Source: Methylotenera sp. (GTDB lineage Bacteria > Pseudomonadota > Gammaproteobacteria > Burkholderiales > Methylophilaceae). Taken from it: a DNA stretch of 64,000 nt. A program made the position numbers and the translations under genes. The notes beneath the pieces are model-generated. The model searched no databases and was not told where the DNA came from. It saw only the letters and a program-made list of their open reading frames with translations. Shown piece by piece: positions 5,186 to 51,992 of the stretch. Each line of letters begins with the position of its first letter. Position 1 is the stretch's first letter. The DNA is taken from assembly GCF_029946165.1 (NCBI RefSeq), contig NZ_JAQSDZ010000024.1, positions 35,825-99,824 on the forward strand. Reading direction: 5' to 3'.

Positions 5186-7798
5186 ATGACGATGCCAATT
5201 GATAAAGACCTGACACCTAAAACTATTTTCTTAAAAGACTATCAGCCAGCGCCTTATAGCGTAGCGCATGTGAATCTGAGTTTTACCTTGTTTGAAGACA
5301 AAACAATTGTTAAGTCTGAGGTGTCGTACGTTAAAAACCCGAATAGTGCTTCACATGACTTAATCTTAAACGGTGAAGGTCAGACCATTACCTCTGTTGA
5401 GCTTGATAACAAGCCGTTTAATGGCTACGTTCTCACAGATGAAACCTTCACTATCCATAATGCAGCTGAGAAATTTACGCTGACGATTACCTCGGAAATT
5501 GACCCAGAATCCAACACATTGCTTGAGGGTTTATATAAATCTCAAGGTAACTATTGCACGCAATGTGAAGCGGAAGGCTTTCGCCGTATTACATACTTTC
5601 AAGATCGTCCAGATGTGCTCAGCACATTTACTGTGCGTGTTGAAGGAGATAAAAGCAAATATCCAGTATTGCTTTCTAACGGTAATCTCGTAGAGTCAGG
5701 CGAATGCGGCGAAGGTCGCCACTTTACTGTTTGGCATGATCCATTTCCAAAACCTTGCTACCTTTTTGCATTAGTCGCAGGAAATCTGGTGCGAGTTGCA
5801 GACAGCTTTAAAACAATGTCTGGTCGCCATGTCGACTTGCATATTTATGTTCGCACAGGTGATGAGAAACAATGTGACCACGCCATGCAATCGCTGATTA
5901 AAGCCATGAAGTGGGATGAAGAAAAGTACGGCCGGGAATATGAACTGGATTTGTTTAATATCGTCGCCGTGAGTGATTTCAACATGGGTGCCATGGAAAA
6001 TACCTCACTTAATATTTTTAACACTTCGCTTGTCCTCGCCCATCAAAATACCGCGACTGACAGTGACTTTATGAGTGTTGAAGGTGTGATTGGTCATGAG
6101 TATTTTCATAACTGGACTGGCAATCGTGTGACTTGTAGAGATTGGTTCCAATTATCACTCAAAGAAGGTTTTACTGTTTTTAGAGATCAAGAGTTTAGTG
6201 CAGATATGAACTCTCAAGCAGTGCAGCGCATTGATGATGTTAACTCTTTGCGCCGTTTGCAATTTTCAGAAGATGCAGGGCCGTTGGCACACGCAGTTCA
6301 GCCAGATCAATTTATCGAGATTAGCAATTTCTACACAAAAACTGTGTATGAAAAAGGTGCGGAAATCATTCGTATGCAGCACACCTTGTTGGGCGAAGAA
6401 ACATTTCGCAAAGCGACAGATTTGTATTTTGACCGTTATGATGGCCATGCTGTGACCTGTGATGATTTTGTGCAATGTATGGCAGATGCGTCTGGTCGCG
6501 ATATGTCGCAATTCTTCTTGTGGTACAAACAAGCTGGCACGCCAACTTTAAAAGCTTCTAGTCAATACAATGCGGCATCGAGTACTTATACACTCACGTT
6601 TGAGCAATCTCAGCCTGCAACGCCTGGGCAGCTAGATAAAAAACCACTTCACATACCTGTGGCAGTTGGTTTGCTAGACGCAACAGGTGCGCAAACGCAT
6701 GAAACACAGATACTTGAACTGACTGAGCGTGAACAAAGCTTCACCTTCAACAATGTTAATACGCCACCAGTGCCGTCAATCTTGCGTGGTTTTTCTGCGC
6801 CTGTAAAATTAATCACAGACTTGAGCGATGATGATCTTCGTCTATTACAACTTAAAGATACTGATGGTTACAACCGCTGGGAAGCAGGACAAACAATAGC
6901 ATTGCGTAATATTGAGCGGGTGATGGCTGATAGCGAAGCCAATATCTCTCAATTTATAGATGATTTTGGCGCCATGATTGAACAAGGTCTTGCCAATAAT
7001 GGCGATAAAGCATTACTCGCACGCGCCCTCACGCTACCTGCGATAGGCGTTATTGCACAAAGTCAGGAAGTCATTGACCCTACGGCAATAGATAATGCCC
7101 GTACGCAGATACTTAAAACCATTAAACAGACCCACAAAGAAGCATTGCAACGTTTATATAAAGCCAATAGCAATACGGGTGAGTTTTCATTATCGCCAGA
7201 AGCTATGGGACGTAGAGCATTACAAAATACGGTGTTGGAATTGTTAACTGTCACCAATGGAACTGGATGCGCCGCACTTGCAAAAGCGCATTATGATGCC
7301 GCTGATAATATGACCGATATGATTGCTGCGGCATCGTGTCTGTCAGACAGTACGCAAGTTCAAAGAGAAGAAGTGTTAGCTGATTTCTATCGTCGATTTA
7401 AGGACTATCCGCTCGTTGTGGATAAATGGTTCTCGCTTCAAGCGATTGCCAATAGAGAGGCAATATTTGATGACTTTGCGAAACTGCTTAAGCATCCAGA
7501 CTTTAATATTAAAAATCCTAATCGTGTGCGTTCACTTTATTCAGCATTCTCAATCAATAATCCAGTGAAACTCCATGACCCCAGCGGTCAAGGCTATGCC
7601 ATTTTACGAGATGTGATTATCCAGTTGAATGAAATCAATCCACAAATTGCTTCACGCCAAGTAACACCATTCCGCGAATGGAAACGCTACACTCCAGCCT
7701 TGCAAGCGCATATGAAAGAGGCACTACAAAGCATTATGAACACGCCTAACCTTTCAAACGATGTGTTTGAGATTGTAAGTAAAAGCTTGAATGGCTAG
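5186..7798 (+). CDS. pepN: Aminopeptidase N (M1 family)
   Basis: GAMEN and HEYFH...E zinc motifs, TQCEAEGFRRIT, NPNRVRSL C-terminal domain. Confidence 0.97.
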   Translation: MTMPIDKDLTPKTIFLKDYQPAPYSVAHVNLSFTLFEDKTIVKSEVSYVKNPNSASHDLILNGEGQTITSVELDNKPFNGYVLTDETFTIHNAAEKFTLTITSEIDPESNTLLEGLYKSQGNYCTQCEAEGFRRITYFQDRPDVLSTFTVRVEGDKSKYPVLLSNGNLVESGECGEGRHFTVWHDPFPKPCYLFALVAGNLVRVADSFKTMSGRHVDLHIYVRTGDEKQCDHAMQSLIKAMKWDEEKYGREYELDLFNIVAVSDFNMGAMENTSLNIFNTSLVLAHQNTATDSDFMSVEGVIGHEYFHNWTGNRVTCRDWFQLSLKEGFTVFRDQEFSADMNSQAVQRIDDVNSLRRLQFSEDAGPLAHAVQPDQFIEISNFYTKTVYEKGAEIIRMQHTLLGEETFRKATDLYFDRYDGHAVTCDDFVQCMADASGRDMSQFFLWYKQAGTPTLKASSQYNAASSTYTLTFEQSQPATPGQLDKKPLHIPVAVGLLDATGAQTHETQILELTEREQSFTFNNVNTPPVPSILRGFSAPVKLITDLSDDDLRLLQLKDTDGYNRWEAGQTIALRNIERVMADSEANISQFIDDFGAMIEQGLANNGDKALLARALTLPAIGVIAQSQEVIDPTAIDNARTQILKTIKQTHKEALQRLYKANSNTGEFSLSPEAMGRRALQNTVLELLTVTNGTGCAALAKAHYDAADNMTDMIAAASCLSDSTQVQREEVLADFYRRFKDYPLVVDKWFSLQAIANREAIFDDFAKLLKHPDFNIKNPNRVRSLYSAFSINNPVKLHDPSGQGYAILRDVIIQLNEINPQIASRQVTPFREWKRYTPALQAHMKEALQSIMNTPNLSNDVFEIVSKSLNG

Positions 7799-11589: not shown

Positions 11590-12174
11590 TTATGCATTTT
11601 TGCGTCTACGAGCTACAAAGCCCATTAAGCCAAGACCTGCAAGCATCATTGCATATGACTCTGGTTCTGGTACAGGAGAGGTTGAGTTAACATACCAAGC
11701 GCTGCCGCCTTGTGCGTCTGTCAAACCTTGTACATGCAATGCGAATTCATCACCAGCAAAAGCTACTGGATTAGCAAATGTTGCAGTGAAAGATACTGTC
11801 TCACCTGATGTTAAACGTGCTTGTTTATCAGTTAAGTCAAAGCGGAATTCCCATTGACCTGTAGGGCCACCACCATTAGAAACAGTTACAGGAGCGCCAC
11901 CAACAACGTTTGAAACTACTGGTGTTAATGCCGGGTCTGTATTTACAGCAATCGCGCCAATGAAAGCACCAGTTGTAAATATACTGTTAAGGTCAAAAGA
12001 AGTTAGTGTGAAGTTGTAAACACTACCGCTACCTGTAACAGACAAGCTAGCAAATGTTTCAGTTGGCTGATAAGAGCCAGATAGAAGTGTACCGTAGTCT
12101 TCTGTTGAAGCCATTGCTGGTACCGCTGTAAGCATTGTGATTGCAAGAAGCAATCCTTTAAGATTATTAAACAT
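11590..12174 (-). CDS. PEP-CTERM sorting domain surface protein
   Basis: Signal peptide ending PAMA; C-terminal VPEPESYAMMLAGLGLMGFVARRRKNA. Confidence 0.95.
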   Translation of the reverse strand: MFNNLKGLLLAITMLTAVPAMASTEDYGTLLSGSYQPTETFASLSVTGSGSVYNFTLTSFDLNSIFTTGAFIGAIAVNTDPALTPVVSNVVGGAPVTVSNGGGPTGQWEFRFDLTDKQARLTSGETVSFTATFANPVAFAGDEFALHVQGLTDAQGGSAWYVNSTSPVPEPESYAMMLAGLGLMGFVARRRKNA

Positions 12175-12330: not shown

Positions 12331-13302
12331 TTACAATTGGTTAGCTCTAACTTTTGCATGCCTTAAAGAAACAAAACTAGGAATATACGCAGCCAGCAAA
12401 ATCACTATTGATAAAATTAAATACAGCCAACGAATGTTGTAGTCAGTAACAAAGCTGGAAGCTGGTTTTTGTTTCTCTAAAAACTCATAAAATTTAGATG
12501 TATCCTTGCCTTTAATGTAGGTCGCTTTAATATCTGCCGAAAGCTTAATTAAGTATTCCGATTCTAATTGAGATAAAAATCGATCATATTCTGCATTTGC
12601 GACTGGGGGATCAGGCTCATCTTGGCTTGGGTCAGCATAGGTCACACCGACTGCGCCTGCATTATTGTTATCAGTGATAGGCCAATATCCCACTCTTTTA
12701 TTATTCGAGCTAAACCTCGGAACACCAACTTTCGTAACGCCACCAATCCCTACAAACGTTAGATTTTTACCCATTTGTATGCCACTTAAATCTTGCTGAA
12801 TAGTGACATTCACTCTTGGAGCTTCATCTCCATCTGTGAAAAATAGCATTTGTGCAGGCACATTGAGAGAGTCAAATACATTCGCCGCTGCGCGTACACC
12901 AAAACTTAGGCGACTATTGCCTTTCCAAGCCATACGCCACTCAAGATGGTCTATAGAATCTGTAATGACATCTAAGTTTTTACAGACCTCTAGAGGATTA
13001 ATTAATAACGCAACGTTGTCTGATGCAAAAATACCTACGCTAAAATAAGTGCCACATGGTGATGTTTGTACAATATTCCTCATTAAATAGCGCGTATAAG
13101 CTAGCCGACTGACTGCTTTATTATTGAGCCTTTCATCCTCAGCATTCATGCTTTGAGATACATCTGCAACCAGTAAGTAGTTATGTACCCGTTGTTTTAA
13201 TTGTATATTGGGCTTAAAAATTGCCAGTATCATAAAAACGATGGCTGTTATATAGAGAAATGTTTCGTAATTTCTCTTAACAAATGTAAGTGTTTTATTC
13301 AT
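12331..13302 (-). CDS. mxaL: MxaL-like VWA domain protein
   Basis: ADVSQSM MIDAS-like motif, FFTDGDEAP, TMs at both ends; last gene of R-S-A-C-K-L order. Confidence 0.8.
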   Translation of the reverse strand: MNKTLTFVKRNYETFLYITAIVFMILAIFKPNIQLKQRVHNYLLVADVSQSMNAEDERLNNKAVSRLAYTRYLMRNIVQTSPCGTYFSVGIFASDNVALLINPLEVCKNLDVITDSIDHLEWRMAWKGNSRLSFGVRAAANVFDSLNVPAQMLFFTDGDEAPRVNVTIQQDLSGIQMGKNLTFVGIGGVTKVGVPRFSSNNKRVGYWPITDNNNAGAVGVTYADPSQDEPDPPVANAEYDRFLSQLESEYLIKLSADIKATYIKGKDTSKFYEFLEKQKPASSFVTDYNIRWLYLILSIVILLAAYIPSFVSLRHAKVRANQL

Positions 13303-13835
13303 GGTAATCCTATTGGCAAGTTACTTAATTCCATCGTGGATTGTTCTTTAGGTGCTGCCTTCATATTTTTTGCCATCACGGAATTCAAAAGACTTAGATT
13401 AAATTTGGTTGCCTTATCTTCTGGCGTGATACGAAGTGATTGCTCATAAGCCAATTTGGCTTGAATATAAGCGTATCTTGCTTCATCTTGGAATGTGCCA
13501 TCATCATTAATTCTACGAATTAAGCCAAAAGTAAACAGATTATTGCCAATATTGAAATGAATTTTGGCTTGATCTGCTAAAGATGGCGCGTTATCTAATA
13601 ACTGGCTGTAAGTTTGCACTGCATGCTTGTAATCAGATTTATTTCCTTGATCATAAGCCGCGGTAAATTTTTGCAAATAAGGATAATCAATGTCTGTGAT
13701 TAACTTGCCCGAAGCAATTTGGTCATTTAATCGCGTGATTTTATGATATTGATAAGCTTCAAAAGCCGTCCCGATAAGCCCAATAATTAATAATAATCCA
13801 AAGATAATATTGCTATTTTTGATGTGTTTTGCCAT
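13299..13835 (-). CDS. mxaK: MxaK-like TPR protein
   Basis: N-terminal TM, HFNIGNNLF, YEQSLRITP...TKFNLSLL, C-terminal LPIGLP. Confidence 0.8.
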   Translation of the reverse strand: MAKHIKNSNIIFGLLLIIGLIGTAFEAYQYHKITRLNDQIASGKLITDIDYPYLQKFTAAYDQGNKSDYKHAVQTYSQLLDNAPSLADQAKIHFNIGNNLFTFGLIRRINDDGTFQDEARYAYIQAKLAYEQSLRITPEDKATKFNLSLLNSVMAKNMKAAPKEQSTMELSNLPIGLP

Positions 13836-14800
13836 TAATGTATCCTAAGATTTTTAACCAATAAAATGAGCAAGCTCAGTGCTAATGCAATCACAATCAG
13901 GTCTCTTGAGTAATCATGACCGGGGATAGTGACCGAGTACTGAATCATATTTTTTTCTTTAGCGTTAATCTCACGAAGCGCGGACTCTAGCGTGGTTGGA
14001 TTATCTGCCTCGAAAGCTTTGTATTTGAGTTTGAGTGATTTAAAAAAGCGATCTAAATTAATTGAGTCAGGCGCTTGTTCTTCGGTGTAATTTTCTTTAC
14101 TAAAAATACTAATGTCATCTGGCTCACGCAATACAATCCAATAAAGATTGAGCTTTTTTTCCGCTAATTGGTGTGAGATTTTGTATTTAACTCTTGGACT
14201 CAACTTTCCCGCGCCATCTGAAAGCAAGATGACCGCCCTGGAACCTGAGCTTTGAATGTTATCGAACAGTGTTACCGCTTGCGTGATACCTGCACCTATA
14301 TTGGTTTGGTTTAAGGCAGGTCCTGTAGCTGCGTTAATCGCGGCATGTATGGCATCACGATTTGCTGTAATTTTCATGCCATACAGTGCTGAGTTAGTAA
14401 AACCAACTACACCCATCATATCGTCAGGGCGTGAGTCGATAAACGCCGTGATTAACCTTCTAGCTGCGGCTGACTTTATCTCTGCCGCCCTGCCGCCTGT
14501 TACTTGACCTGCGAACGGGTGGTCCATACTCACACTGCGATCAATGACCAACACAGTCTGCGCGCCTTTGCCAATTTTTTGTTCCTGCTTGCTCGCGCCT
14601 TGCGGTGATGCAAGTGCCAATACAAGACTAAGCAATAATAATGCAGTAATAGTTTTAACGGTAAGGTTAGCAATCTCTGAGAATCTGTCCGAAGGTACAA
14701 TATCAAGCCACGAATACATCTGCCCTTGATGGCTCTTTAGCAAAAATGGCACCGCAATAATGGGCAAAAGCAAAATCGCCATGGGTTGTAATAGGGTCAT
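13835..14800 (-). CDS. mxaC: MxaC-like VWA domain protein
   Basis: VIDRSVSM MIDAS, VILLSDGAG, N- and C-terminal TMs. Confidence 0.85.
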   Translation of the reverse strand: MTLLQPMAILLLPIIAVPFLLKSHQGQMYSWLDIVPSDRFSEIANLTVKTITALLLLSLVLALASPQGASKQEQKIGKGAQTVLVIDRSVSMDHPFAGQVTGGRAAEIKSAAARRLITAFIDSRPDDMMGVVGFTNSALYGMKITANRDAIHAAINAATGPALNQTNIGAGITQAVTLFDNIQSSGSRAVILLSDGAGKLSPRVKYKISHQLAEKKLNLYWIVLREPDDISIFSKENYTEEQAPDSINLDRFFKSLKLKYKAFEADNPTTLESALREINAKEKNMIQYSVTIPGHDYSRDLIVIALALSLLILLVKNLRIH

Positions 14801-15709
14801 TTATGCACCTCGCTCACAATCTCTTAAATGCTTACTGAGTTTGAGTAGCTCGCTCATATATTGTGAGGAATCAGTGGAGTGATTTGCAAACAAAAATGCA
14901 TTTGATTGGTCGAAAAAATCGCGTATTTGATTCTTAAATTTTGAAAACTGAGGATGGCTAAGCAAAAACTTATCCACCTCATAATCAAATAGATTTGAGC
15001 CATAGGTTTGATTAAAAGCTTGATGCATAAAAACAGAAGCTTGCTTTTGACCTTCTAAGGTTTTGGGTAGTTTTTTTAATTTTCGATGCGCTTGTGCAAA
15101 TGCGCCATTCATCCATGGAATCCAACGCCCATCTGCATTCATATACAAAAGCCCTAGTACGCCAATTGCTAGGAGTGCCATAGCTAATCCTAGCTTAACT
15201 TGATGTGAAACTACATTCTGTAAATCGGCTTTATGTTGCGGTTGCATAACCGGTTTAGCGTTTAAAATACCTTCTGGTACTAAAGCGGCATACCAAAACT
15301 GCCATCTAGGCACCTCTACAATAAAGTTGCTTTTATCAGCTGTGAAAGTTAAATGTTCTTTAGGCAATTGTATTAATGCTGGCTTGCTGGCACTGACAAA
15401 TACTTGGTAAGTAAGATTAATTAAGTACTTATTTTTTCCACTTGAGTGAGATAACTTTGCCTGAATATCTTTTAATTCAATCCCATCTAAGTTTCTCCCT
15501 TTGATAGGTAATATAGATTTGGAGAGTTTGTAAGATTCTTGCACCTCAATTTCCACTGTGCGATGTAAAACATCACCAATTTGTACGCCATGATTCTGCG
15601 GCGGATTTATGATTTTTATCAGTTTGGCCTCGGTATTCTGACCCTCAGACATTGCAGAGAATGACACTAAGCTAAGTAATATCAGGCATTTAAGCATTAA
15701 ATTTTTCAT
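14801..15709 (-). CDS. mxaA: MxaA-like protein
   Basis: Signal peptide, GVQIGDVLHRTV, YQVF, TM, then FAQAHRKL...HQAFNQT; position between mxaS and mxaC. Confidence 0.8.
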   Translation of the reverse strand: MKNLMLKCLILLSLVSFSAMSEGQNTEAKLIKIINPPQNHGVQIGDVLHRTVEIEVQESYKLSKSILPIKGRNLDGIELKDIQAKLSHSSGKNKYLINLTYQVFVSASKPALIQLPKEHLTFTADKSNFIVEVPRWQFWYAALVPEGILNAKPVMQPQHKADLQNVVSHQVKLGLAMALLAIGVLGLLYMNADGRWIPWMNGAFAQAHRKLKKLPKTLEGQKQASVFMHQAFNQTYGSNLFDYEVDKFLLSHPQFSKFKNQIRDFFDQSNAFLFANHSTDSSQYMSELLKLSKHLRDCERGA

Positions 15710-15721
15710 ACTTTGTTTTTC

Positions 15722-16582
15722 CTAACCCATCATTTCTTCAAAATAATGCGACATCATTTCTGGTTTATATTGATTGCTGATGAAAACTGCTTGTGTTTCA
15801 AATTTGGAAAATAAGGCGTTTAGCGCTTGTTTTCTTTGCTCGAATGCAGCAATAAATTGTTGCCTTACGGCCTCACGAAAAAATATGGTTTTTTGCAACC
15901 CAGTTTCAGGATCAATCATGTTTCCGAAACCAAACTTAGGTAGTTTCAAATACTCATGTTCATCCCAAAGCACAATAGGTACAAGCTGATGAATAGACAT
16001 TGCGCTGAGCGCTTGCTCAATTAGCGCTAAGGGCATATGAAAATCGGAAATCCAAAACACTAATCCTTTATGCTGACTTAAGTATTGAGGGACTTCTAAA
16101 ATACCTTCGCATCCGATGTTCATTCCATGAACTTGGGAAAGTTGCTCAATGGTTTCAAATGATTGTTGAACATTGCGATTGAGTGTAAGTGTCATGTCCT
16201 CAATCACCGTTTTGTCATAGCAAATCAAACTAAACAAATCACCAACCTCAAAAGCTGAATAGGCGACTGAAGCAGCGATCTCTTTCGCAATATCTAACTT
16301 TCTAACGCGCCCTTTAAATTGCATTGAGCTTGATAAGTCACATATTGCAAAAATGGGCGTCGTGTTGTCTTGATTGAATACTCTGACCTGCACTTGCTCG
16401 TAAGGGTCACGTAACGTTTGGCGGATATCCATGCGTCTTGCATCTGGATAATCAATTAGAGACACATTTCCTTTAAATTCAAACCCTAATCCACGTTGTG
16501 TACCGCGATGGCCGCCGTAATGCACGCTGCTCGATTTCCAAGGAACCTGATAGGTAAAAGGTTTTGCGTAAGCGGGAATCAT
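15722..16582 (-). CDS. mxaS: MxaS-like DUF58 protein
   Basis: GHRGTQRGLGFEF, DARRMDIRQTLRDP, CDLSSSM, FWISDFH. Confidence 0.85.
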   Translation of the reverse strand: MIPAYAKPFTYQVPWKSSSVHYGGHRGTQRGLGFEFKGNVSLIDYPDARRMDIRQTLRDPYEQVQVRVFNQDNTTPIFAICDLSSSMQFKGRVRKLDIAKEIAASVAYSAFEVGDLFSLICYDKTVIEDMTLTLNRNVQQSFETIEQLSQVHGMNIGCEGILEVPQYLSQHKGLVFWISDFHMPLALIEQALSAMSIHQLVPIVLWDEHEYLKLPKFGFGNMIDPETGLQKTIFFREAVRQQFIAAFEQRKQALNALFSKFETQAVFISNQYKPEMMSHYFEEMMG

Positions 16583-17625
16583 GCAGCTTTAGCCTGAGCC
16601 GGTACGGCAACAGTTTGTAGAATCTGTGACGTTAACTCGCGAGCTAGCACTGTTCTGCGGTTCTCATACATCGTGTTAAACACTAAGCGGTGCGCAATCA
16701 ATTCATGGAAAACCGCATGAATATCTTCTGGGTATAAGCTATCTCGATTCATTAACCATGCATTCACGCGTGCCGCTTTGAGCAACATTCCCATTCCACG
16801 CGGGCTAGCGCCCGTGTGAATCAGGCGAGTAATATCAGCACTGTCTAGCTTGATGCCAAACTTCTCTGGTGATTGTGTTGCCTCCCACAGATCAAGGGCA
16901 TATTCTTCTAGAACATTGCTTGATTTAATATGACTTTGAAGTAAATCTGAAAATGCATTCAGCTGATCAAACTGCAATACTTTTGATTCCACTTGCTGGG
17001 TCAAACTTTCTGCATGCTGAAACTTTACATCGAACATGAGCGCTTTACGCAAATCACGATCATCTGGTATGTTGATGGGGATTTCCATCATAAATCTATC
17101 GCGCGCGGCCGATGGAATCTCAAAAGTCTCATTTTTTTCAACTTGATTTCTATCGGCAAATACCACCATGTGAGGCAAGCGATACTCGCGTTTGAAAGCA
17201 CTGATATGTCGCTCAGCCATTACACGCAGCATTAGTGCATGCACTTGCGGTCTTGCTCGATTAATTTCATTAAAAAAGAAAACAGATAAATTCTCGCCAG
17301 CTCTTAATAAAGGGCCTTCATCAATTTTTGGGCGACCATCTTCTCCCAAATAAGTATGGTAAATAAGGTCATTTGGCATTAAATCCACGGTGCCTTCAAT
17401 ACGCTCATAGTCACCACCTATGCATCTTGCAATAGATTGCAACAGCGTCGTTTTACCTACGCCTACACCGCCTTCAAGTAATACATGACCACGGGCAAAA
17501 ATCGCGATATTGATCAAACGAATGGCTTTTTCCTGTCCTACGATTACCTTTTTCACTTCGTTTTCTAGCTTTAATGCATGACTACGCCAATCTGCCAAAT
17601 TTGCATCATTAATTGATATTTGCAT
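16579..17625 (-). CDS. mxaR: MxaR / MoxR AAA+ ATPase
   Basis: GGVGVGKTT Walker A, NEINRARPQ, GASPRG; start set at ATG17625 with AGGA RBS. Confidence 0.92.
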   Translation of the reverse strand: MQISINDANLADWRSHALKLENEVKKVIVGQEKAIRLINIAIFARGHVLLEGGVGVGKTTLLQSIARCIGGDYERIEGTVDLMPNDLIYHTYLGEDGRPKIDEGPLLRAGENLSVFFFNEINRARPQVHALMLRVMAERHISAFKREYRLPHMVVFADRNQVEKNETFEIPSAARDRFMMEIPINIPDDRDLRKALMFDVKFQHAESLTQQVESKVLQFDQLNAFSDLLQSHIKSSNVLEEYALDLWEATQSPEKFGIKLDSADITRLIHTGASPRGMGMLLKAARVNAWLMNRDSLYPEDIHAVFHELIAHRLVFNTMYENRRTVLARELTSQILQTVAVPAQAKAA

Positions 17626-17694
17626 ATGAATCCTATATAAATAAAGTTTACGGAGAACGATGCATTGCATTGTGCAATACATTGCGTTAACATG

Positions 17695-17707
17695 CAGACA
17701 GGTCTGT
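17695..17707. promoter_or_regulatory. Candidate TetR operator in the mxaR divergent promoter
   Basis: CAGACAGGTCTGT contains CAGAC-AG-GTCTG and ACAG-GT-CTGT; the latter 10-mer is the reverse complement of 49513-49522. Confidence 0.6.
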
Positions 17708-17771
17708 TCGTTTTTATAGTCTACTTTAAGTTTTCTAGTGAACGCAAGATATTTTTTTGAGGTAAATTAAG

Positions 17772-18551
17772 TTGACCCAATTACACAATTATCAGGTAAG
17801 AAAAATTAAGCTCTGGGATCTAACAGGTTTAGTTTCTTTTACTGGCCTGCAAAAAATCATCTCTTCTAAATCGGGTAGAAATATCGCACTTATCTTGCTG
17901 CCAAAACAGTTAAATGATTGGAATAGAGCTAGGGCTGCAAACCTAATTGCCAATGGACAACATTCAAATTTATCTTTTGAAGACATCAGTTTTATTAAGA
18001 ACCAAATTCAAGAGGCGGTTAGCAAATCTGTAAAAAATTGCACACAAGTATTCATAGATCAGCTGTTCTTTTTGACGATAGGCGCCATTCAAATTCAATC
18101 TCAAACTGATTCCTCTCAGGCTTGGAAGTTATTATCGCAAACCATTGATGACTACTTAAATCCTAAAAGTGAATATCGAGTTTATCAATTCGGCGCCTTA
18201 ATCATGTTTTTTATGATTTGCCTGAGCACGTTGCAAATTATCCCTACAAAACATTACGCAGCAAGTGCAAGTGGCGATGACATGCTTTTCGAAGCACCAA
18301 AAAACTCAATGCCTGTAGGTATAGCCGACCCCGTTACCATCAGTATGTTACAACTTGCTTATAGCAAAATGAAAAAGGGCACTTGCCAACTTCCGCAAGC
18401 AGCTATGTTGCCAGAACGCCAAAGACAAGCATTTTTGGCTTTTGTGAATGAAGGTACGATAGACGTGAATAATGTGGAAAATTTAAGAGATGCATTTGGC
18501 TACGTGAGTTGTTTATACCCACAAGAACTTATGCGTCCACTTATACATTAA
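17772..18551 (+). CDS. Uncharacterised membrane protein: degenerate TetR C-terminal-like domain + TM + two-Cys periplasmic domain (paralog of 50231..51028)
   Basis: TTG start with GAGGT RBS; TM VYQFGALIMFFMICLSTLQII; C-terminal YSKMKKGTCQLPQA...YVSC aligns with the 50231 protein. Confidence 0.75.
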   Translation: MTQLHNYQVRKIKLWDLTGLVSFTGLQKIISSKSGRNIALILLPKQLNDWNRARAANLIANGQHSNLSFEDISFIKNQIQEAVSKSVKNCTQVFIDQLFFLTIGAIQIQSQTDSSQAWKLLSQTIDDYLNPKSEYRVYQFGALIMFFMICLSTLQIIPTKHYAASASGDDMLFEAPKNSMPVGIADPVTISMLQLAYSKMKKGTCQLPQAAMLPERQRQAFLAFVNEGTIDVNNVENLRDAFGYVSCLYPQELMRPLIH

Positions 18552-18580: not shown

Positions 18581-19156
18581 TTGAATAAAGGAATTTTGAT
18601 GAAAACCAATGAGAAAATATTAGCCGTCGCTACACTTCTATTTGACAGTAGGGGCATACAAGCTTCTGGCGTAGATACGATTATTGCTGAGTCTGGCGTA
18701 GCGAAAGCAACGCTTTATAAACATTATCCAAGCAAAAACCTCTTGGTCATTGCTTATCTCAAGAGTAAATCTGATAAATTCTACGAGTGGTTGAATTCGC
18801 AATTGGCTTCTAAAAAAGAAGACTCCATTGAGATTCTGATAACCCTATGCGAGTTGGTTGAAGTGTGGATTTCAACACCAGAATTCCATGGACTTCCATT
18901 CCATATTGCTTCGGTGGAGTTTCCAGACCCAGATCACCCAATCAATCAATACTCTGTTGTACTCGCTGCGGAGTTACAAGGTTATCTGTCGAAAATCGCT
19001 AAAACAGCGGGGGCGCGTGACCCAGTTGCGCTTGGACAACAACTCACCATCATATTTGAAGGGGCTGCTTTAGTTGATAGATTAAGCCCAGGTACTGGGG
19101 CCGCAAAAAGAGCAAAGAATGCAGCTGTCGCATTAATCCAGAGTGCAGTCAAATAG
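18581..19156 (+). CDS. TetR/AcrR family transcriptional regulator
   Basis: GVDTIIAESGVAKATLYKHYPSK HTH; likely start ATG18599. Confidence 0.95.
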   Translation: MNKGILMKTNEKILAVATLLFDSRGIQASGVDTIIAESGVAKATLYKHYPSKNLLVIAYLKSKSDKFYEWLNSQLASKKEDSIEILITLCELVEVWISTPEFHGLPFHIASVEFPDPDHPINQYSVVLAAELQGYLSKIAKTAGARDPVALGQQLTIIFEGAALVDRLSPGTGAAKRAKNAAVALIQSAVK

Positions 19157-48885: not shown

Positions 48886-49449
48886 CTAATTGGTAAGCGC
48901 GCTATCGATTAGTATTTTTGAAGCCTTTTTCGCATATTTCATAGCGCCAGAGCCACGTTTCATTTGTTCGGCTTGCACTGCACCCTCAAAGATGAGCGAG
49001 AGTTGAAGCGCTAAGCCATCTGCGTCATGAATGCCAGCTTCTGTGGCTAGGCTAGAAATGAATTGTCTAAATTGACGGGATTGTTCTGAAGAGAGTTGAT
49101 GGATGGGACTTTCTTCATTTGGAAATTCCGCAGACGCTTTAATAAAGCCCATGCCACGAAAATTTGGCGAGGTGACCCATTCTTCAATAAATTCAAATAG
49201 CTTTTGTAGTTTATCGCTAGGTTTTTTTACATTGGAATTGAGTTGTTCGCTTAACCAGCTTTGAAAGTCTTGATGACCTTTTTCCAGCACTTCAAGTATT
49301 AGATTTTCTTTGCTAGTGAAGTATTTATAGAGTGTCATTTTAGTTGTACCCGCTACGGCAACAATCGTATCCACGCCAGTCGAATTTATACCCCTAGTTT
49401 GGAACAGGTCGGTAGCTACCACTAAAATTTTACTTTTCAACGAAGACAT
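48886..49449 (-). CDS. TetR/AcrR family regulator (paralog of 18581..19156)
   Basis: GVDTIVAVAGTTKMTLYKYFTSK HTH; QLSLIFEGA vs QLTIIFEGA; start set at ATG49449 (GGAGG RBS). Confidence 0.95.
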   Translation of the reverse strand: MSSLKSKILVVATDLFQTRGINSTGVDTIVAVAGTTKMTLYKYFTSKENLILEVLEKGHQDFQSWLSEQLNSNVKKPSDKLQKLFEFIEEWVTSPNFRGMGFIKASAEFPNEESPIHQLSSEQSRQFRQFISSLATEAGIHDADGLALQLSLIFEGAVQAEQMKRGSGAMKYAKKASKILIDSALTN

Positions 49450-49508
49450 TTGACTTGCCTCCAATTAACACTTGAATCTTATTTTATACTAAAATAAATA
49501 AAAAATCC

Positions 49509-49526
49509 ATATACAGACCTGTATAT
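49509..49526. promoter_or_regulatory. Candidate TetR operator in the tetR/mxaD divergent promoter
   Basis: ATATACAG-AC-CTGTATAT, perfect 8-bp arms. Confidence 0.7.
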
Positions 49527-49661
49527 ATAAGATAAACTATTTTCACTGTTGCAGTTTTTACACGATTAATTGTTGATTTATAAGAACATTGTAAATAATA
49601 AAACTGCAATAATGCGAAGTTAAATGTCTATACCAATATGTATATTTTCAGGAGAATTAAC

Positions 49662-50165
49662 GTGGGTAAATTACTTATAGCACTATCTTTAGCAGCAATT
49701 GGTTTTGTGGCACAGGCTAATGCGGCATCACCAGCAACGCTTTATGTGATTAAGTCAGTCAACATCAATGTACCAGCTGCAACTGCTTGGGAAAAACTTT
49801 CTAAGTTTGGCGATTTAGGCGCTTGGCATCCAGCCGTTACAAAAACAGAAATAATCGCAGGGTCTGAAGGTAAAAAAGGTGCGAAACGCACACTTACTTT
49901 GCAAGATGGTGGCAAAATCAATGAAACACTCACTGCATACAATGCAAAAAATAAAACCATGAGCTATATCATTACAGATGGTGTATTACCCGTGACTAGC
50001 TATGCTTCAAACTTACATGTGTATTCAAATGGCGATGATAAATCAGTGGTTGTGTGGGAAGGTAGCTTTTTGCCAAAAGCGCCTGCGGATGAAAAAGCTG
50101 CATCTGATGTTATTGGTGGGGTATACGAAGGTGGTTTAGCTAATCTTAAGAAAATTTTAGAGTAG
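49662..50165 (+). CDS. mxaD: Periplasmic SRPBCC protein, MxaD-like
   Basis: GTG49662 with AGGAG RBS, signal peptide ending QANA, WHPAV, KRTLTLQDGG, SYIITDGVLPVTSY, GVYEGGLANL. Confidence 0.7.
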   Translation: MGKLLIALSLAAIGFVAQANAASPATLYVIKSVNINVPAATAWEKLSKFGDLGAWHPAVTKTEIIAGSEGKKGAKRTLTLQDGGKINETLTAYNAKNKTMSYIITDGVLPVTSYASNLHVYSNGDDKSVVVWEGSFLPKAPADEKAASDVIGGVYEGGLANLKKILE

Positions 50166-50178
50166 TTGCTTTAAGCAG

Positions 50179-50206
50179 GTGTGGCGATATGAGCGTGTCG
50201 CCACAC
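50179..50206. terminator. Hairpin between convergent mxaD and the membrane TetR-like gene
   Basis: GTGTGGCGA...TCGCCACAC stem. Confidence 0.6.
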
Positions 50207-50230
50207 TCTTAATTAACGTAGTAACAATGA

Positions 50231-51028
50231 TTATCTAGAGTTTGCCATTAACATTGGCGTGAAATTACAGCGTACTTTTTCTAAATATGAATTAGCAATT
50301 GCCAAGTCATGGAGATTGGCTGGTATTTTCCCCCCCACTACATTTTCCAAGTAAACCGCTTTATCTTTATCTGGAATCTGAATAGCTTCGGGAAACTGAC
50401 AGGTGCCATGACGCATTTGCTCATACCTTGCATACATCGATGCTGCTTCTTGAGCAGTTAATCTGGTAGTACTCGGATTTAGTGCAACGCTCACTTTTGT
50501 TGTTTCATTGCTAAAAGATTTAGCGATTAAAGGGCTTGTTTGTTTGTGTAAAAGCACAGGTAGCCACATAGAGCTAATTCCAATAATTAGAAATAAACTT
50601 GCGGCTACTCCAAAAATAGCTCGCTTAGACATGGATGGTTTGAACTCTGCGAGTTTATCGCGTAGGTTTTCAAACCAAATCCACTCGTTTTGAGTTTGCG
50701 CCAGAATCAGGGCATTCGCTGCCTTTTTAGCGTGAAGTAAACTACCGCAGCCAGGATGATTAATTTCTTGCTGCGCGGCATTGCAAGCAATCAGAGCGAT
50801 ATGTTCAGCAAGGATTGAGGGGTTGGCAGCGCCTAAGCTTTTAGCTTCTACTACTAAAAACTCGATAAGCTGACTATTCGCAAATGAGGATATTGTGATG
50901 GATATCTGCGTATCAGGTGCGCCAAGCCAGTCATTCAAAATATCAAACAGACTCAGTATGCGGCCTTGTGGCGTTTTGCTGGACTTAGCCAGCATATTAA
51001 GTAGCCACTGTGAATTGAAAATATCCAT
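50231..51028 (-). CDS. Uncharacterised membrane protein: HTH-less TetR C-terminal-like domain + TM + two-Cys periplasmic domain
   Basis: GRILSLFDILNDW...GAANPSILAEHIALI...AKKAANALI matches the TetR C-halves in this window; TM AIFGVAASLFLIIGISSMWLPVLL; YEQMRHGTCQFPEA...KVRC. Confidence 0.8.
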   Translation of the reverse strand: MDIFNSQWLLNMLAKSSKTPQGRILSLFDILNDWLGAPDTQISITISSFANSQLIEFLVVEAKSLGAANPSILAEHIALIACNAAQQEINHPGCGSLLHAKKAANALILAQTQNEWIWFENLRDKLAEFKPSMSKRAIFGVAASLFLIIGISSMWLPVLLHKQTSPLIAKSFSNETTKVSVALNPSTTRLTAQEAASMYARYEQMRHGTCQFPEAIQIPDKDKAVYLENVVGGKIPANLHDLAIANSYLEKVRCNFTPMLMANSR

Positions 51029-51052: not shown

Positions 51053-51466
51053 TCAGAATGGTTTAACGACAACCAGTATGACAATGATAGTGAGCGCAAC
51101 AACAGGGAGCTCATTAAACCAGCGATACCAGATATGGCTGCGAGTATTTCTGTCATGTTTAAAGTCATTCACAAGTTTGCCGCAATAAAAATGGTAGGCA
51201 ACAAGTACGGCAACCAGCGTTAATTTTGGGTGCATCCATTTGCCCGTTACGCCATAACCTAGCCACAACCAAAGACCAAAACTCAGCGCTAATACAGCGA
51301 GAGGAAACATGAAGCGATACAGTTTACGTTCCATGAGTTTAAGTCGCTCGGATGTTGCGACATCGGTCACCATGGCGTGATTTACTAAAAGTCTAGGCAA
51401 GTAAAATAACCCAGCAAACCAGCTAGTGACAAAAATAATATGAAATGCCTTGACCCATAACATCAA
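51053..51466 (-). CDS. hemJ: Protoporphyrinogen oxidase HemJ (CopD-like)
   Basis: WVKAFHIIFVTSWFAGLFYLPRL, YRWFNELP, VVKPF. Confidence 0.93.
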   Translation of the reverse strand: MMLWVKAFHIIFVTSWFAGLFYLPRLLVNHAMVTDVATSERLKLMERKLYRFMFPLAVLALSFGLWLWLGYGVTGKWMHPKLTLVAVLVAYHFYCGKLVNDFKHDRNTRSHIWYRWFNELPVVALTIIVILVVVKPF

Positions 51467-51485: not shown

Positions 51486-51992
51486 TTAATTTTTTGCAGC
51501 GAATTCTGCACTTATAAGTTGATTTAACTTAACAAAATCTAATGCACCAATTGTATGTTGTAATAGCTTTCCTTGCTTATCAAAAATAAAGGTTGTTGGG
51601 GTTAAATCCACATTACCAAATTTTTCTGTAACTTCTGAAAGCCCGTCATGCATCACGGGAAAAGGTATCTTCTTTTGCGTAACATAATTCAACACCTGAG
51701 CTGGGGGGGCGTAAGGCATTGCAACGGCAATAATTTCAAAGCCTTTTTGTTGATATTGCCGATATGTGCTGACTAATGCAGGCATTTCCGTAATGCAGGC
51801 TAAGCAGTCAGTTGCCCAAAAATTCACTAATACTATCTTTCCTTTTAAGTCCACCATGCTGATTTTTTTACCTTCAATGGTGGTGAAAGTAACGTCTGGT
51901 GCTGTATTTTTATTATAAGTAAATACTGCCAACGAACTAAGTAGCACCACAATGAGGGTAGTAATCAGAGGTTTTTTTAATATATAGTTCAT
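51486..51992 (-). CDS. TlpA family disulfide reductase
   Basis: N-terminal anchor, VNFWATDCLAC, TPTTFIFDKQG. Confidence 0.9.
   Translation of the reverse strand: MNYILKKPLITTLIVVLLSSLAVFTYNKNTAPDVTFTTIEGKKISMVDLKGKIVLVNFWATDCLACITEMPALVSTYRQYQQKGFEIIAVAMPYAPPAQVLNYVTQKKIPFPVMHDGLSEVTEKFGNVDLTPTTFIFDKQGKLLQHTIGALDFVKLNQLISAEFAAKN

Follow-up and report, generated by a model that had tools for sequence, protein, structure and literature searches.

The window analysed in this study, a 64-kb stretch of a Methylotenera genome, carries two copies of a gene pair in which a TetR-type regulator is accompanied by a membrane-anchored paralogue of its own C-terminal half. The paralogue of copy 2 is a single-pass membrane protein of 265 amino acids, and TM2C is the shorthand coined here for its family. 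A TM2C protein consists of a cytoplasmic N-domain that resembles the C-terminal domain of TetR proteins, one transmembrane (TM) helix, and a periplasmic C-domain of ~70 residues with two cysteines. Judged from the sequences, the module probably lets a TetR repressor respond to periplasmic conditions. The TM2C-TetR module is undescribed; no curated family, solved structure or paper was found for it, and the literature searched contains no description of TM2C, of the module or of its regulation.

The original prediction, made from the letters of the window alone, had read the N-terminal half of the 265-residue protein as a TetR C-terminal half without the helix-turn-helix (HTH), and BLASTP, a profile of TetR C-domains only and the family profile all agree with this reading. 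In BLASTP, the N-terminal half aligns with TetR residues 69-186 (E=9e-7). The profile searches avoid circularity: the TetR-C-domain-only profile recovers the 265-residue protein at E=3e-9 (Z=1e6), and a family profile built without the clade of copy 1 recovers copy 1 (E=4e-12) together with its orthologues (E ~1e-20). In the reverse direction, the TM2C family profile matches the C-terminal halves of both neighbouring TetR proteins (2e-19 and 5e-13). The best Foldseek matches of the N-part in the PDB are TetR regulators (PA2196, SAV143, SCO4454, NemR, and SlmA; probability ~1.0, E ~0.1), and weak matches to TetR_C_31, 34, 35, and 6 recur across 42 TM2C members. Neither TM2C copy matches any Pfam or NCBIfam model; Pfam finds no TetR_N domain in the 265-residue protein, and the alignment to TetR begins at approximately TetR residue 64. 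Since only 24 nucleotides lie between the TM2C gene and hemJ, there is no room for an HTH. A public gene call for this protein begins at Met12 and gives 254 residues. We regard the 265-residue start as better because the first 11 residues (MDIFNSQWL...) are conserved in the family and align with W70/L71 of TetR. The resemblance of the C-terminal part to that of the protein beginning at position 17772 (copy 1), which had also been predicted, is confirmed at 34% identity over 61 residues (BLASTP, E=6e-8).

The AlphaFold2 (AF2) model of the 265-residue protein, built on a 42-sequence alignment, has a mean predicted local distance difference test (pLDDT) score of 84.6. Residues 1-112 form the five helices of the N-domain, with pLDDT >90 over most of their length, and are followed by a juxtamembrane helix (115-128), the TM helix (135-160), a disordered linker (165-184), and the periplasmic C-domain, which is compact and again has pLDDT >90. 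The number of Lys and Arg residues before the TM helix exceeds that after it in 54 of 62 TM2C members, is equal in 8 and is never lower (mean, 2.9 before and 0.9 after), so that, under the positive-inside rule, TM2C is anchored in the inner membrane with its N-terminus on the cytoplasmic side. Two cysteines, no more and no fewer, follow the TM helix in all 62 members, and Cys210 and Cys254 are the sole invariant columns of the family alignment. The ratio of nonsynonymous to synonymous substitutions (dN/dS) is 0.04-0.2 in the two folded domains, a sign of purifying selection on both, and rises in the TM helix and linker. When the C-domain is modelled by itself, Foldseek finds no matching fold in the PDB (best E=3); a profile search of the PDB returned only designed protein A chains without a significant stretch, hence no credible match, and the scores against the Atlas were ≤0.46, none above the lead threshold. 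On the basis of the model, the C-domain is a small new fold family without a PDB match.

A word-indexed search returned 435 TM2C proteins, and an exhaustive search of 1.84 billion representatives gave 118 clusters at 50% identity. None of the homologues or clusters carries a functional name, and all members with a named source belong to the Methylophilaceae, in which TM2C is found in 125 of 151 genomes and 37 of 41 genera at one to four copies each; the gaps lie mainly among genomes of ~1.3 Mb. In 197 genomes of other families of the same order, the sole matches are TetR C-terminal halves; in 399 further genomes of the class, the C-domain profile gave no convincing match. TM2C was thus found in none of the roughly 600 genomes searched beyond the Methylophilaceae. 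Representatives of odd appearance (P0181, P0185, P0188, P0187, and others) were rejected as new architectures, since they are frameshifted or chimeric metagenome calls.

The association with TetR was surveyed at 60 loci on long contigs, which were taken from the tops of the hit lists rather than at random and include related genomes that are not independent samples; the open reading frames were labelled by phmmer with the window proteins as queries. A TetR gene adjoins TM2C in 59 of the 60 loci; 57 of these have it downstream, on the TM2C strand. The gap between the two genes is <40 nucleotides, or the genes overlap, in most clade B and D loci, while in two loci (L077 and L078) TM2C and the TetR gene converge. 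The single TM2C gene without an adjacent TetR (L071; G256:C1:226422-239192) is located between RecQ-like and DEAD-box helicase genes and encodes a protein of odd amino acid composition. The expected co-occurrence with TetR is thus found, and the family is confined to a family of methylotrophs. Widespread homologues without such a link, or an unrelated function of the domain, would have spoken against the original prediction; neither was encountered.

The TM2C tree has four clades, A to D. When these labels are placed on an independently built TetR tree, each occupies one clade with support of 97-100 (100% for clade D) and with the minimum possible number of changes; this one-to-one mapping means that the pair was duplicated as a unit. 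In a joint tree, a branch with support of 99 separates all TM2C N-domains from all TetR C-domains, including those of 15 outgroup TetRs from other families. The HTH-less paralogue therefore arose once, after which the pair duplicated and diverged together, and repeated origin of TM2C from the neighbouring TetR is ruled out by the same branch. The two TetRs of the window, which had been predicted to be paralogues, share 42% identity. The earlier statement that the same pair occurs at two mxa loci holds for the pair, which is conserved and co-inherited, and fails for copy 2, whose surroundings are not an mxa locus.

The partner TetR of copy 2 scores 49.6 bits with TetR_N, for which the Pfam cutoff is 24, and is thus a TetR family member. 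Its best NCBIfam model is DicD/YjdC (NF047866), at 77.9 bits against a cutoff of 240, a score far too low for a DicD/YjdC orthologue, and its best sequence matches in the PDB are 3g7r (SCO4454) and 3jsj (SAV143). The residue that follows the invariant Gly104 is Met, Phe, Leu, Val, or Ile in 61 of 61 module TetRs (Met in the copy-2 TetR), and 42 of the 61 contain no cysteine anywhere. The same column is Cys in 15 of 15 nearest relatives from other families, as well as in E. coli DicD, SCO4454, SAV143, and NemR, in which it aligns by residue count with Cys106. A Cys106-Lys175 sulfenamide switch enables NemR to sense reactive chlorine (PMC7464077). With no cysteine at the Cys106 position in any of the 61 proteins, a NemR-type thiol switch within the partner TetR is rejected. 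The partner TetR accordingly reads as an ordinary soluble repressor of the DicD/NemR/SCO4454-like branch that has been deprived of the invariant pocket cysteine. This TetR branch thus lost a conserved pocket cysteine exactly where a membrane-anchored paralogue with an invariant pair of periplasmic cysteines appears. A further link of the branch to periplasmic thiol chemistry is the neighbourhood of E. coli dicD (yjdC), which lies 36 nucleotides directly downstream of dsbD in the order cutA-dsbD-dicD (K-12 4362733-4365356, L110).

The two paralogues have retained different parts of the TetR C-domain. Conservation in the module TetRs is highest in the pocket stretch (F102, G104, A110, E113-F114-P115, and S125 in the copy-2 TetR), with a mean top-residue frequency of 0.69 compared with 0.18 in TM2C, in which 13 columns of the corresponding segment (end of α-5 to α-6) are deleted and the rest is unconserved. 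The consensus residues common to TM2C and TetR are found instead in α-5 (6 residues), α-8 (4), and α-9 (5), with helices numbered by their position in the TetR fold; examples are Q154, L155, G161, A162, A178, K179, A181, A182, L185, and I186. Helices α-8 and α-9 form the dimer interface in TetR proteins.

Palindromes resembling TetR operators are conserved in position at the module. The consensus TATACAG-NN-CTGTATA is located upstream of the TetR gene. In front of TetR or, where the locus is of the operon type, in front of TM2C, 40 of 59 loci match it at 11 or more of its 14 positions, compared with 1.5% of random 230-bp windows. The outer TATAC...GTATA arms are kept in most clade-A loci, and 14 of 18 strict ACAGNNCTGT matches fall in module promoter regions. 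The candidate operator O1 of the window is 45 nucleotides upstream of the TetR start and ~110 nucleotides upstream of the start of a divergent gene for a secreted SRPBCC protein; a second palindrome, TATACCAATATGTATA, could be another TetR site that blocks initiation of this gene. In a genome whose cassette is without the SRPBCC gene (G201), an unlinked SRPBCC orthologue keeps the operator 115 bp upstream, and the SRPBCC protein of the window is likely, by this sequence pattern, a member of the regulon. The CAGACAGGTCTGTTC core found upstream of copy 1 recurs in the mxaR/TM2C intergenic region of L072-L075. In clade B, ACTAAAC-N-GTTTAGT palindromes are located upstream of DUF3280 genes; the promoter of one clade-B DUF3280-TM2C-TetR operon (L080, about 5270-5370) contains approximately twelve tandem TTGGTATTG units beside the operator-like palindromes. 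Three further sites lie in the same genome outside the window. TATACCGAACTGTATA (G000:C11:3585) is 41 bp upstream of a DUF3280 gene (C11:3017-3544), which is a possible unlinked regulon member because it is 47-48% identical to the DUF3280 gene that heads clade-B DUF3280-TM2C-TetR operons elsewhere. The 24-bp near-palindrome GGTGTAAACAGATCTGTATACACC (G000:C5:349915-349940) is 93 bp upstream of the second mxaR of the genome, and TATACCAACCTGTATA (G000:C18:90911) is 45 bp upstream of a molybdopterin oxidoreductase gene that is 77% identical to a neighbour of the clade-D pair L072.

We infer from these features that TM2C and TetR interact and that the periplasm supplies the signal. In the mechanism that we propose, and to which we assign an even chance of being right, membrane-bound TM2C sequesters the cognate TetR, and the periplasmic thiol state tunes the amount of free repressor. 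TM2C would hold the TetR through the retained α-8/α-9 surface, and the resulting heterodimer, which would carry one HTH and be held at the membrane, could not occupy a palindromic operator. A change in thiol state (disulfide formation, reduction, or modification by an electrophile) would alter either capture or the stability of TM2C, and the level of free TetR dimer at the operators would follow, whichever way the switch is thrown. The sites concerned would be the ones that precede the TetR gene itself and the MxaD-like SRPBCC gene; in the paralogous copies, they would be those of mxaRSACKL and of the DUF3280-TM2C-TetR operons. Loss of the cysteine from TetR together with gain of a pair in its partner leaves the hypothesis open to mutation tests.

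In a more specific version, which we consider rather improbable, the module senses thiol-reactive electrophiles in the periplasm, chiefly the formaldehyde released there by pyrroloquinoline quinone (PQQ)-dependent methanol dehydrogenases. An ancestral NemR-like switch would have been split, such that TetR keeps DNA binding and sensing moves to the membrane-anchored paralogue, where the two cysteines become bridged or modified. The output would be feedback on methanol dehydrogenase maturation, acting on mxaRSACKL, MxaD-like proteins, and PQQ dehydrogenases. If true, TetR repressors would have a mode of transmembrane signalling that was not known before.

Table 1. Positions in the window of the two TM2C-TetR pairs, their candidate operators, and neighbouring features.
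Feature	Position	Strand	Basis or remark
TM2C copy 2 (clade A), 265-residue single-pass membrane protein	50231-51028	minus	open reading frame
Cytoplasmic N-domain of copy 2, residues 1-112	50693-51028	minus	five helices corresponding to TetR α-4, 5, 7, 8, and 9
TM helix of copy 2, residues about 138-156	50561-50617	minus	hydrophobic window; N-terminus in, C-terminus out
Periplasmic C-domain of copy 2, residues about 190-262	50243-50461	minus	three helices and two short strands
Invariant Cys210	50399-50401	minus	
Invariant Cys254	50267-50269	minus	
Partner TetR repressor of copy 2 (clade A)	48886-49464	minus	TetR_N E=3.5e-13, above cutoff
Candidate operator O1, TATACAGACCTGTATA, 16-bp palindrome	49510-49525		divergent TetR/SRPBCC promoter region
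Second operator-like palindrome, TATACCAATATGTATA	49629-49644		overlaps the SRPBCC ATG; pattern scan of the window
Secreted SRPBCC protein, 175 residues, MxaD-like paralogue	49638-50165	plus	Polyketide_cyc2 E=7e-24
GC-rich hairpin between the convergent SRPBCC and TM2C genes	50179-50206		read directly from the sequence
hemJ	51053-51466	minus	Pfam and NCBIfam; 24-nucleotide gap to TM2C
tlpA/resA-like thiol-disulfide oxidoreductase	51486-51992	minus	Pfam and NCBIfam; 19-nucleotide gap to hemJ
mxaRSACKL-like cluster (MoxR AAA, DUF58, vWA proteins, and others)	12331-17682	minus	Pfam; divergent from copy 1
Operator-like site, CAGACAGGTCTGTTC	17695-17709		between mxaR and TM2C copy 1; clade D
TM2C copy 1 (clade D), 259 residues	17772-18551	plus	same architecture, N-domain strongly diverged
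Partner TetR of copy 1 (clade D)	18581-19156	plus	TetR_N E=1.2e-10; 29 nucleotides downstream of TM2C

The layout of the two loci is summarized in Table 1. The open reading frames of the copy-2 TetR, the SRPBCC protein and the 265-residue protein all lie where the original prediction had placed them. The TetR gene is divergent from the SRPBCC gene and is followed by a gene for a pfkB-family kinase, whereas the SRPBCC gene is convergent on TM2C, and the hairpin between these two is likely a bidirectional terminator, to judge from its sequence. The order in the 40 clade-A loci, which include copy 2, is tlpA-hemJ-TM2C-[SRPBCC]-TetR-pfkB, with the tlpA/hemJ synteny kept in 39 of the 40. Of the 39 clade-A loci besides copy 2, 18 have the SRPBCC gene and 21 do not. 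Clade-D pairs are divergent from mxaRSACKL in five of seven loci, including copy 1, and adjoin a PQQ dehydrogenase gene in the other two. The neighbours of clade B are DUF3280 genes (five loci), genes for secreted cupins (four), SRPBCC genes (two), a PQQ dehydrogenase gene (one), and mxaR (one), and in clade C one of the two loci adjoins mxaR. The PQQ-dependent dehydrogenase genes beside clade B and D pairs (L076, L077, and L078) match the Pfam PQQ models at E values of 1e-46 to 1e-81. This survey shows a link to methanol oxidation that recurs across several clades and is not universal. The proposal of a dedicated regulation of methanol-oxidation accessory genes is therefore supported in part, by the neighbours of several clades; that the TM2C-TetR pair regulates these genes is what we infer from the operators and the context.

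The divergent gene had been taken for mxaD in the original prediction. The divergence is correct, whereas the identity is not: by sequence, the encoded protein is an MxaD-like paralogue rather than MxaD itself. As in MxaD, it is a secreted protein of the SRPBCC fold, and its N-terminus reads as a signal peptide. The SRPBCC genes next to mxaL in five genomes, however, are only 30-37% identical to it, and those beside TM2C form an orthologue group of their own (41-49% identity) that is never next to mxaL, so that neither orthology with mxaD nor the mxaD position can be assigned. In this genome, neither of the two SRPBCC genes lies in the vicinity of an mxaL, and neither mxaL has an SRPBCC gene beside it. 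The gene after mxaL in the mxaRSACKL-like cluster of the window (11590-12174) encodes a PEP-CTERM protein, not an SRPBCC protein or MxaD. The mxaD gene is single copy, is tied to mxaFJGI and is absent from Methylotenera strains without mxaFJGI (PMC4109929).

Several observations weigh against capture of TetR by TM2C and its control by periplasmic thiols. The aligned α-8/α-9 positions are no more alike in cognate than in non-cognate pairs (0.273 versus 0.278-0.284), which gives no signal of co-evolution. The N-domain of clade D, including that of copy 1, is undetected by the TetR-C profile, and in clade A the TM2C gene is without an operator of its own. The bare operator pattern is not enriched genome-wide (8 found versus 6.6 expected, and 23 versus 40), and the sites at the DUF3280, molybdopterin oxidoreductase, and second mxaR genes are therefore leads only; for the putative operator, it is positional conservation alone that is significant. 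In genomes without TM2C, hemJ is followed directly by pfkB, from which it follows that the module is a discrete cassette and that the link to tlpA and hemJ may be positional; a functional role of tlpA-hemJ in the module is accordingly unproven, and we have not adopted it. Finally, the invariant cysteines could merely form a structural disulfide.

This last point leads to the rival that we find possible, if unlikely, in which the partner is captured as proposed above while the cysteine pair is a structural disulfide and the C-domain binds a periplasmic protein or ligand of methanol oxidation, for example the MxaD-like SRPBCC protein, the DUF3280 protein, a cupin, a PQQ dehydrogenase, PQQ, or calcium or a lanthanide. 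Stabilizing disulfides are common in periplasmic domains, and most paralogous copies do adjoin genes for secreted or periplasmic proteins (SRPBCC in 18 of 39 clade-A loci, copy 2 not counted, and in 2 of clade B, DUF3280 in 5, cupins in 4, and PQQ dehydrogenases in 3). Yet 21 of those 39 clade-A loci have no such neighbour and the SRPBCC protein of the window is devoid of cysteine; furthermore, almost nothing in the C-domain beyond Gly208 and the two cysteines is invariant, which fits a chemical switch better than a binding site, and the loss of the NemR-type cysteine in every partner TetR would be left unexplained. We consider it unlikely, too, that TM2C is no signalling partner of the TetR and is instead a TetR-regulated or merely co-expressed membrane protein, engaged for example in periplasmic assembly or thiol handling, whose TetR-like domain is a homodimerization scaffold left by the duplication. 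Such a role would agree with the lack of a co-evolution signal at the aligned interface positions, with the place of TM2C in clades B and D, where, in the manner of a target gene, it occupies an operon position behind the operator, and with its apparent co-transcription with tlpA-hemJ in clade A. It is opposed by the pairing of TM2C with the TetR of the matching clade, which has been strict through at least three duplications, by the strong purifying selection on the cytoplasmic domain, by a cysteine loss in the TetRs that is complementary to the cysteine pair of TM2C, and by the identity of the retained helices, which are those with which TetR proteins pair. Chance resemblance or a mis-called or decaying open reading frame, for which only the want of a curated family for either TM2C domain could be cited, has a negligible probability in view of 435 homologues, presence in 125 of 151 genomes, dN/dS of about 0.1, confident AF2 models, and profile E values down to 1e-90.

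The usual view of TetR repressors is that of cytoplasmic one-component sensors. Methylophilaceae are major consumers of methanol in lakes, sediments, and groundwater, and in their non-streamlined members the module is nearly universal and is repeatedly found beside methanol dehydrogenase accessory genes. Within the DicD/NemR/SCO4454/SAV143 branch, the partner TetR is a normal member with TetR_N and a C-domain, except that the module TetRs are without the cysteine of the branch (the switch residue Cys106 of NemR). The N-domain of TM2C has the same C-domain fold, as seen from the presence of 3jsj, 3g7r, and NemR among the Foldseek matches, whereas TM2C differs from the branch in having neither HTH nor pocket, in being anchored to the membrane, and in its additional periplasmic domain. 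Similarly, the 175-residue protein of the window is a secreted SRPBCC protein homologous to the product of the gene beside mxaL, that is, MxaD of mxaFJGIRSACKLD, from which it differs in its low identity, its separate group, and its position.

The closest parallels in organization are found outside the TetR family. In the RseA-type anti-sigma factors of extracytoplasmic function (ECF) sigma factors, a cytoplasmic N-domain holds the soluble transcription factor and is followed by one TM helix, a disordered linker, and a small periplasmic sensor, and the two genes are adjacent and often nearly abut. The likeness of TM2C is in topology only, without a relation in sequence or fold, and TM2C would capture a TetR repressor by means of a paralogue of the dimerization domain of that repressor. 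ToxR, TcpP, and CadC are likewise single-pass proteins with the N-terminus in the cytoplasm, and a periplasmic cysteine pair, through its disulfide, tunes their activity or stability; however, their DNA-binding domain is part of the membrane protein, whereas here it resides in a separate soluble TetR, and their periplasmic domains are not related to that of TM2C. No Pfam, NCBIfam, or fold match connects the 265-residue protein with anti-sigma factors or ToxR-like receptors. Heterodimerization with a truncated paralogue is exemplified by TrlR, which has no DNA-binding domain and inactivates TraR; TrlR itself is a soluble LuxR-type protein that is neither anchored to the membrane nor a sensor. 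By analogy, the logic of the proposed module resembles that of anti-sigma factors, of ToxR/CadC receptors, and of truncated paralogues, and TM2C belongs to none of these groups. If a membrane-anchored paralogue does couple a TetR repressor to the periplasm, it would represent a new way to build transmembrane signalling, in which a one-component regulator is split and tethered again.

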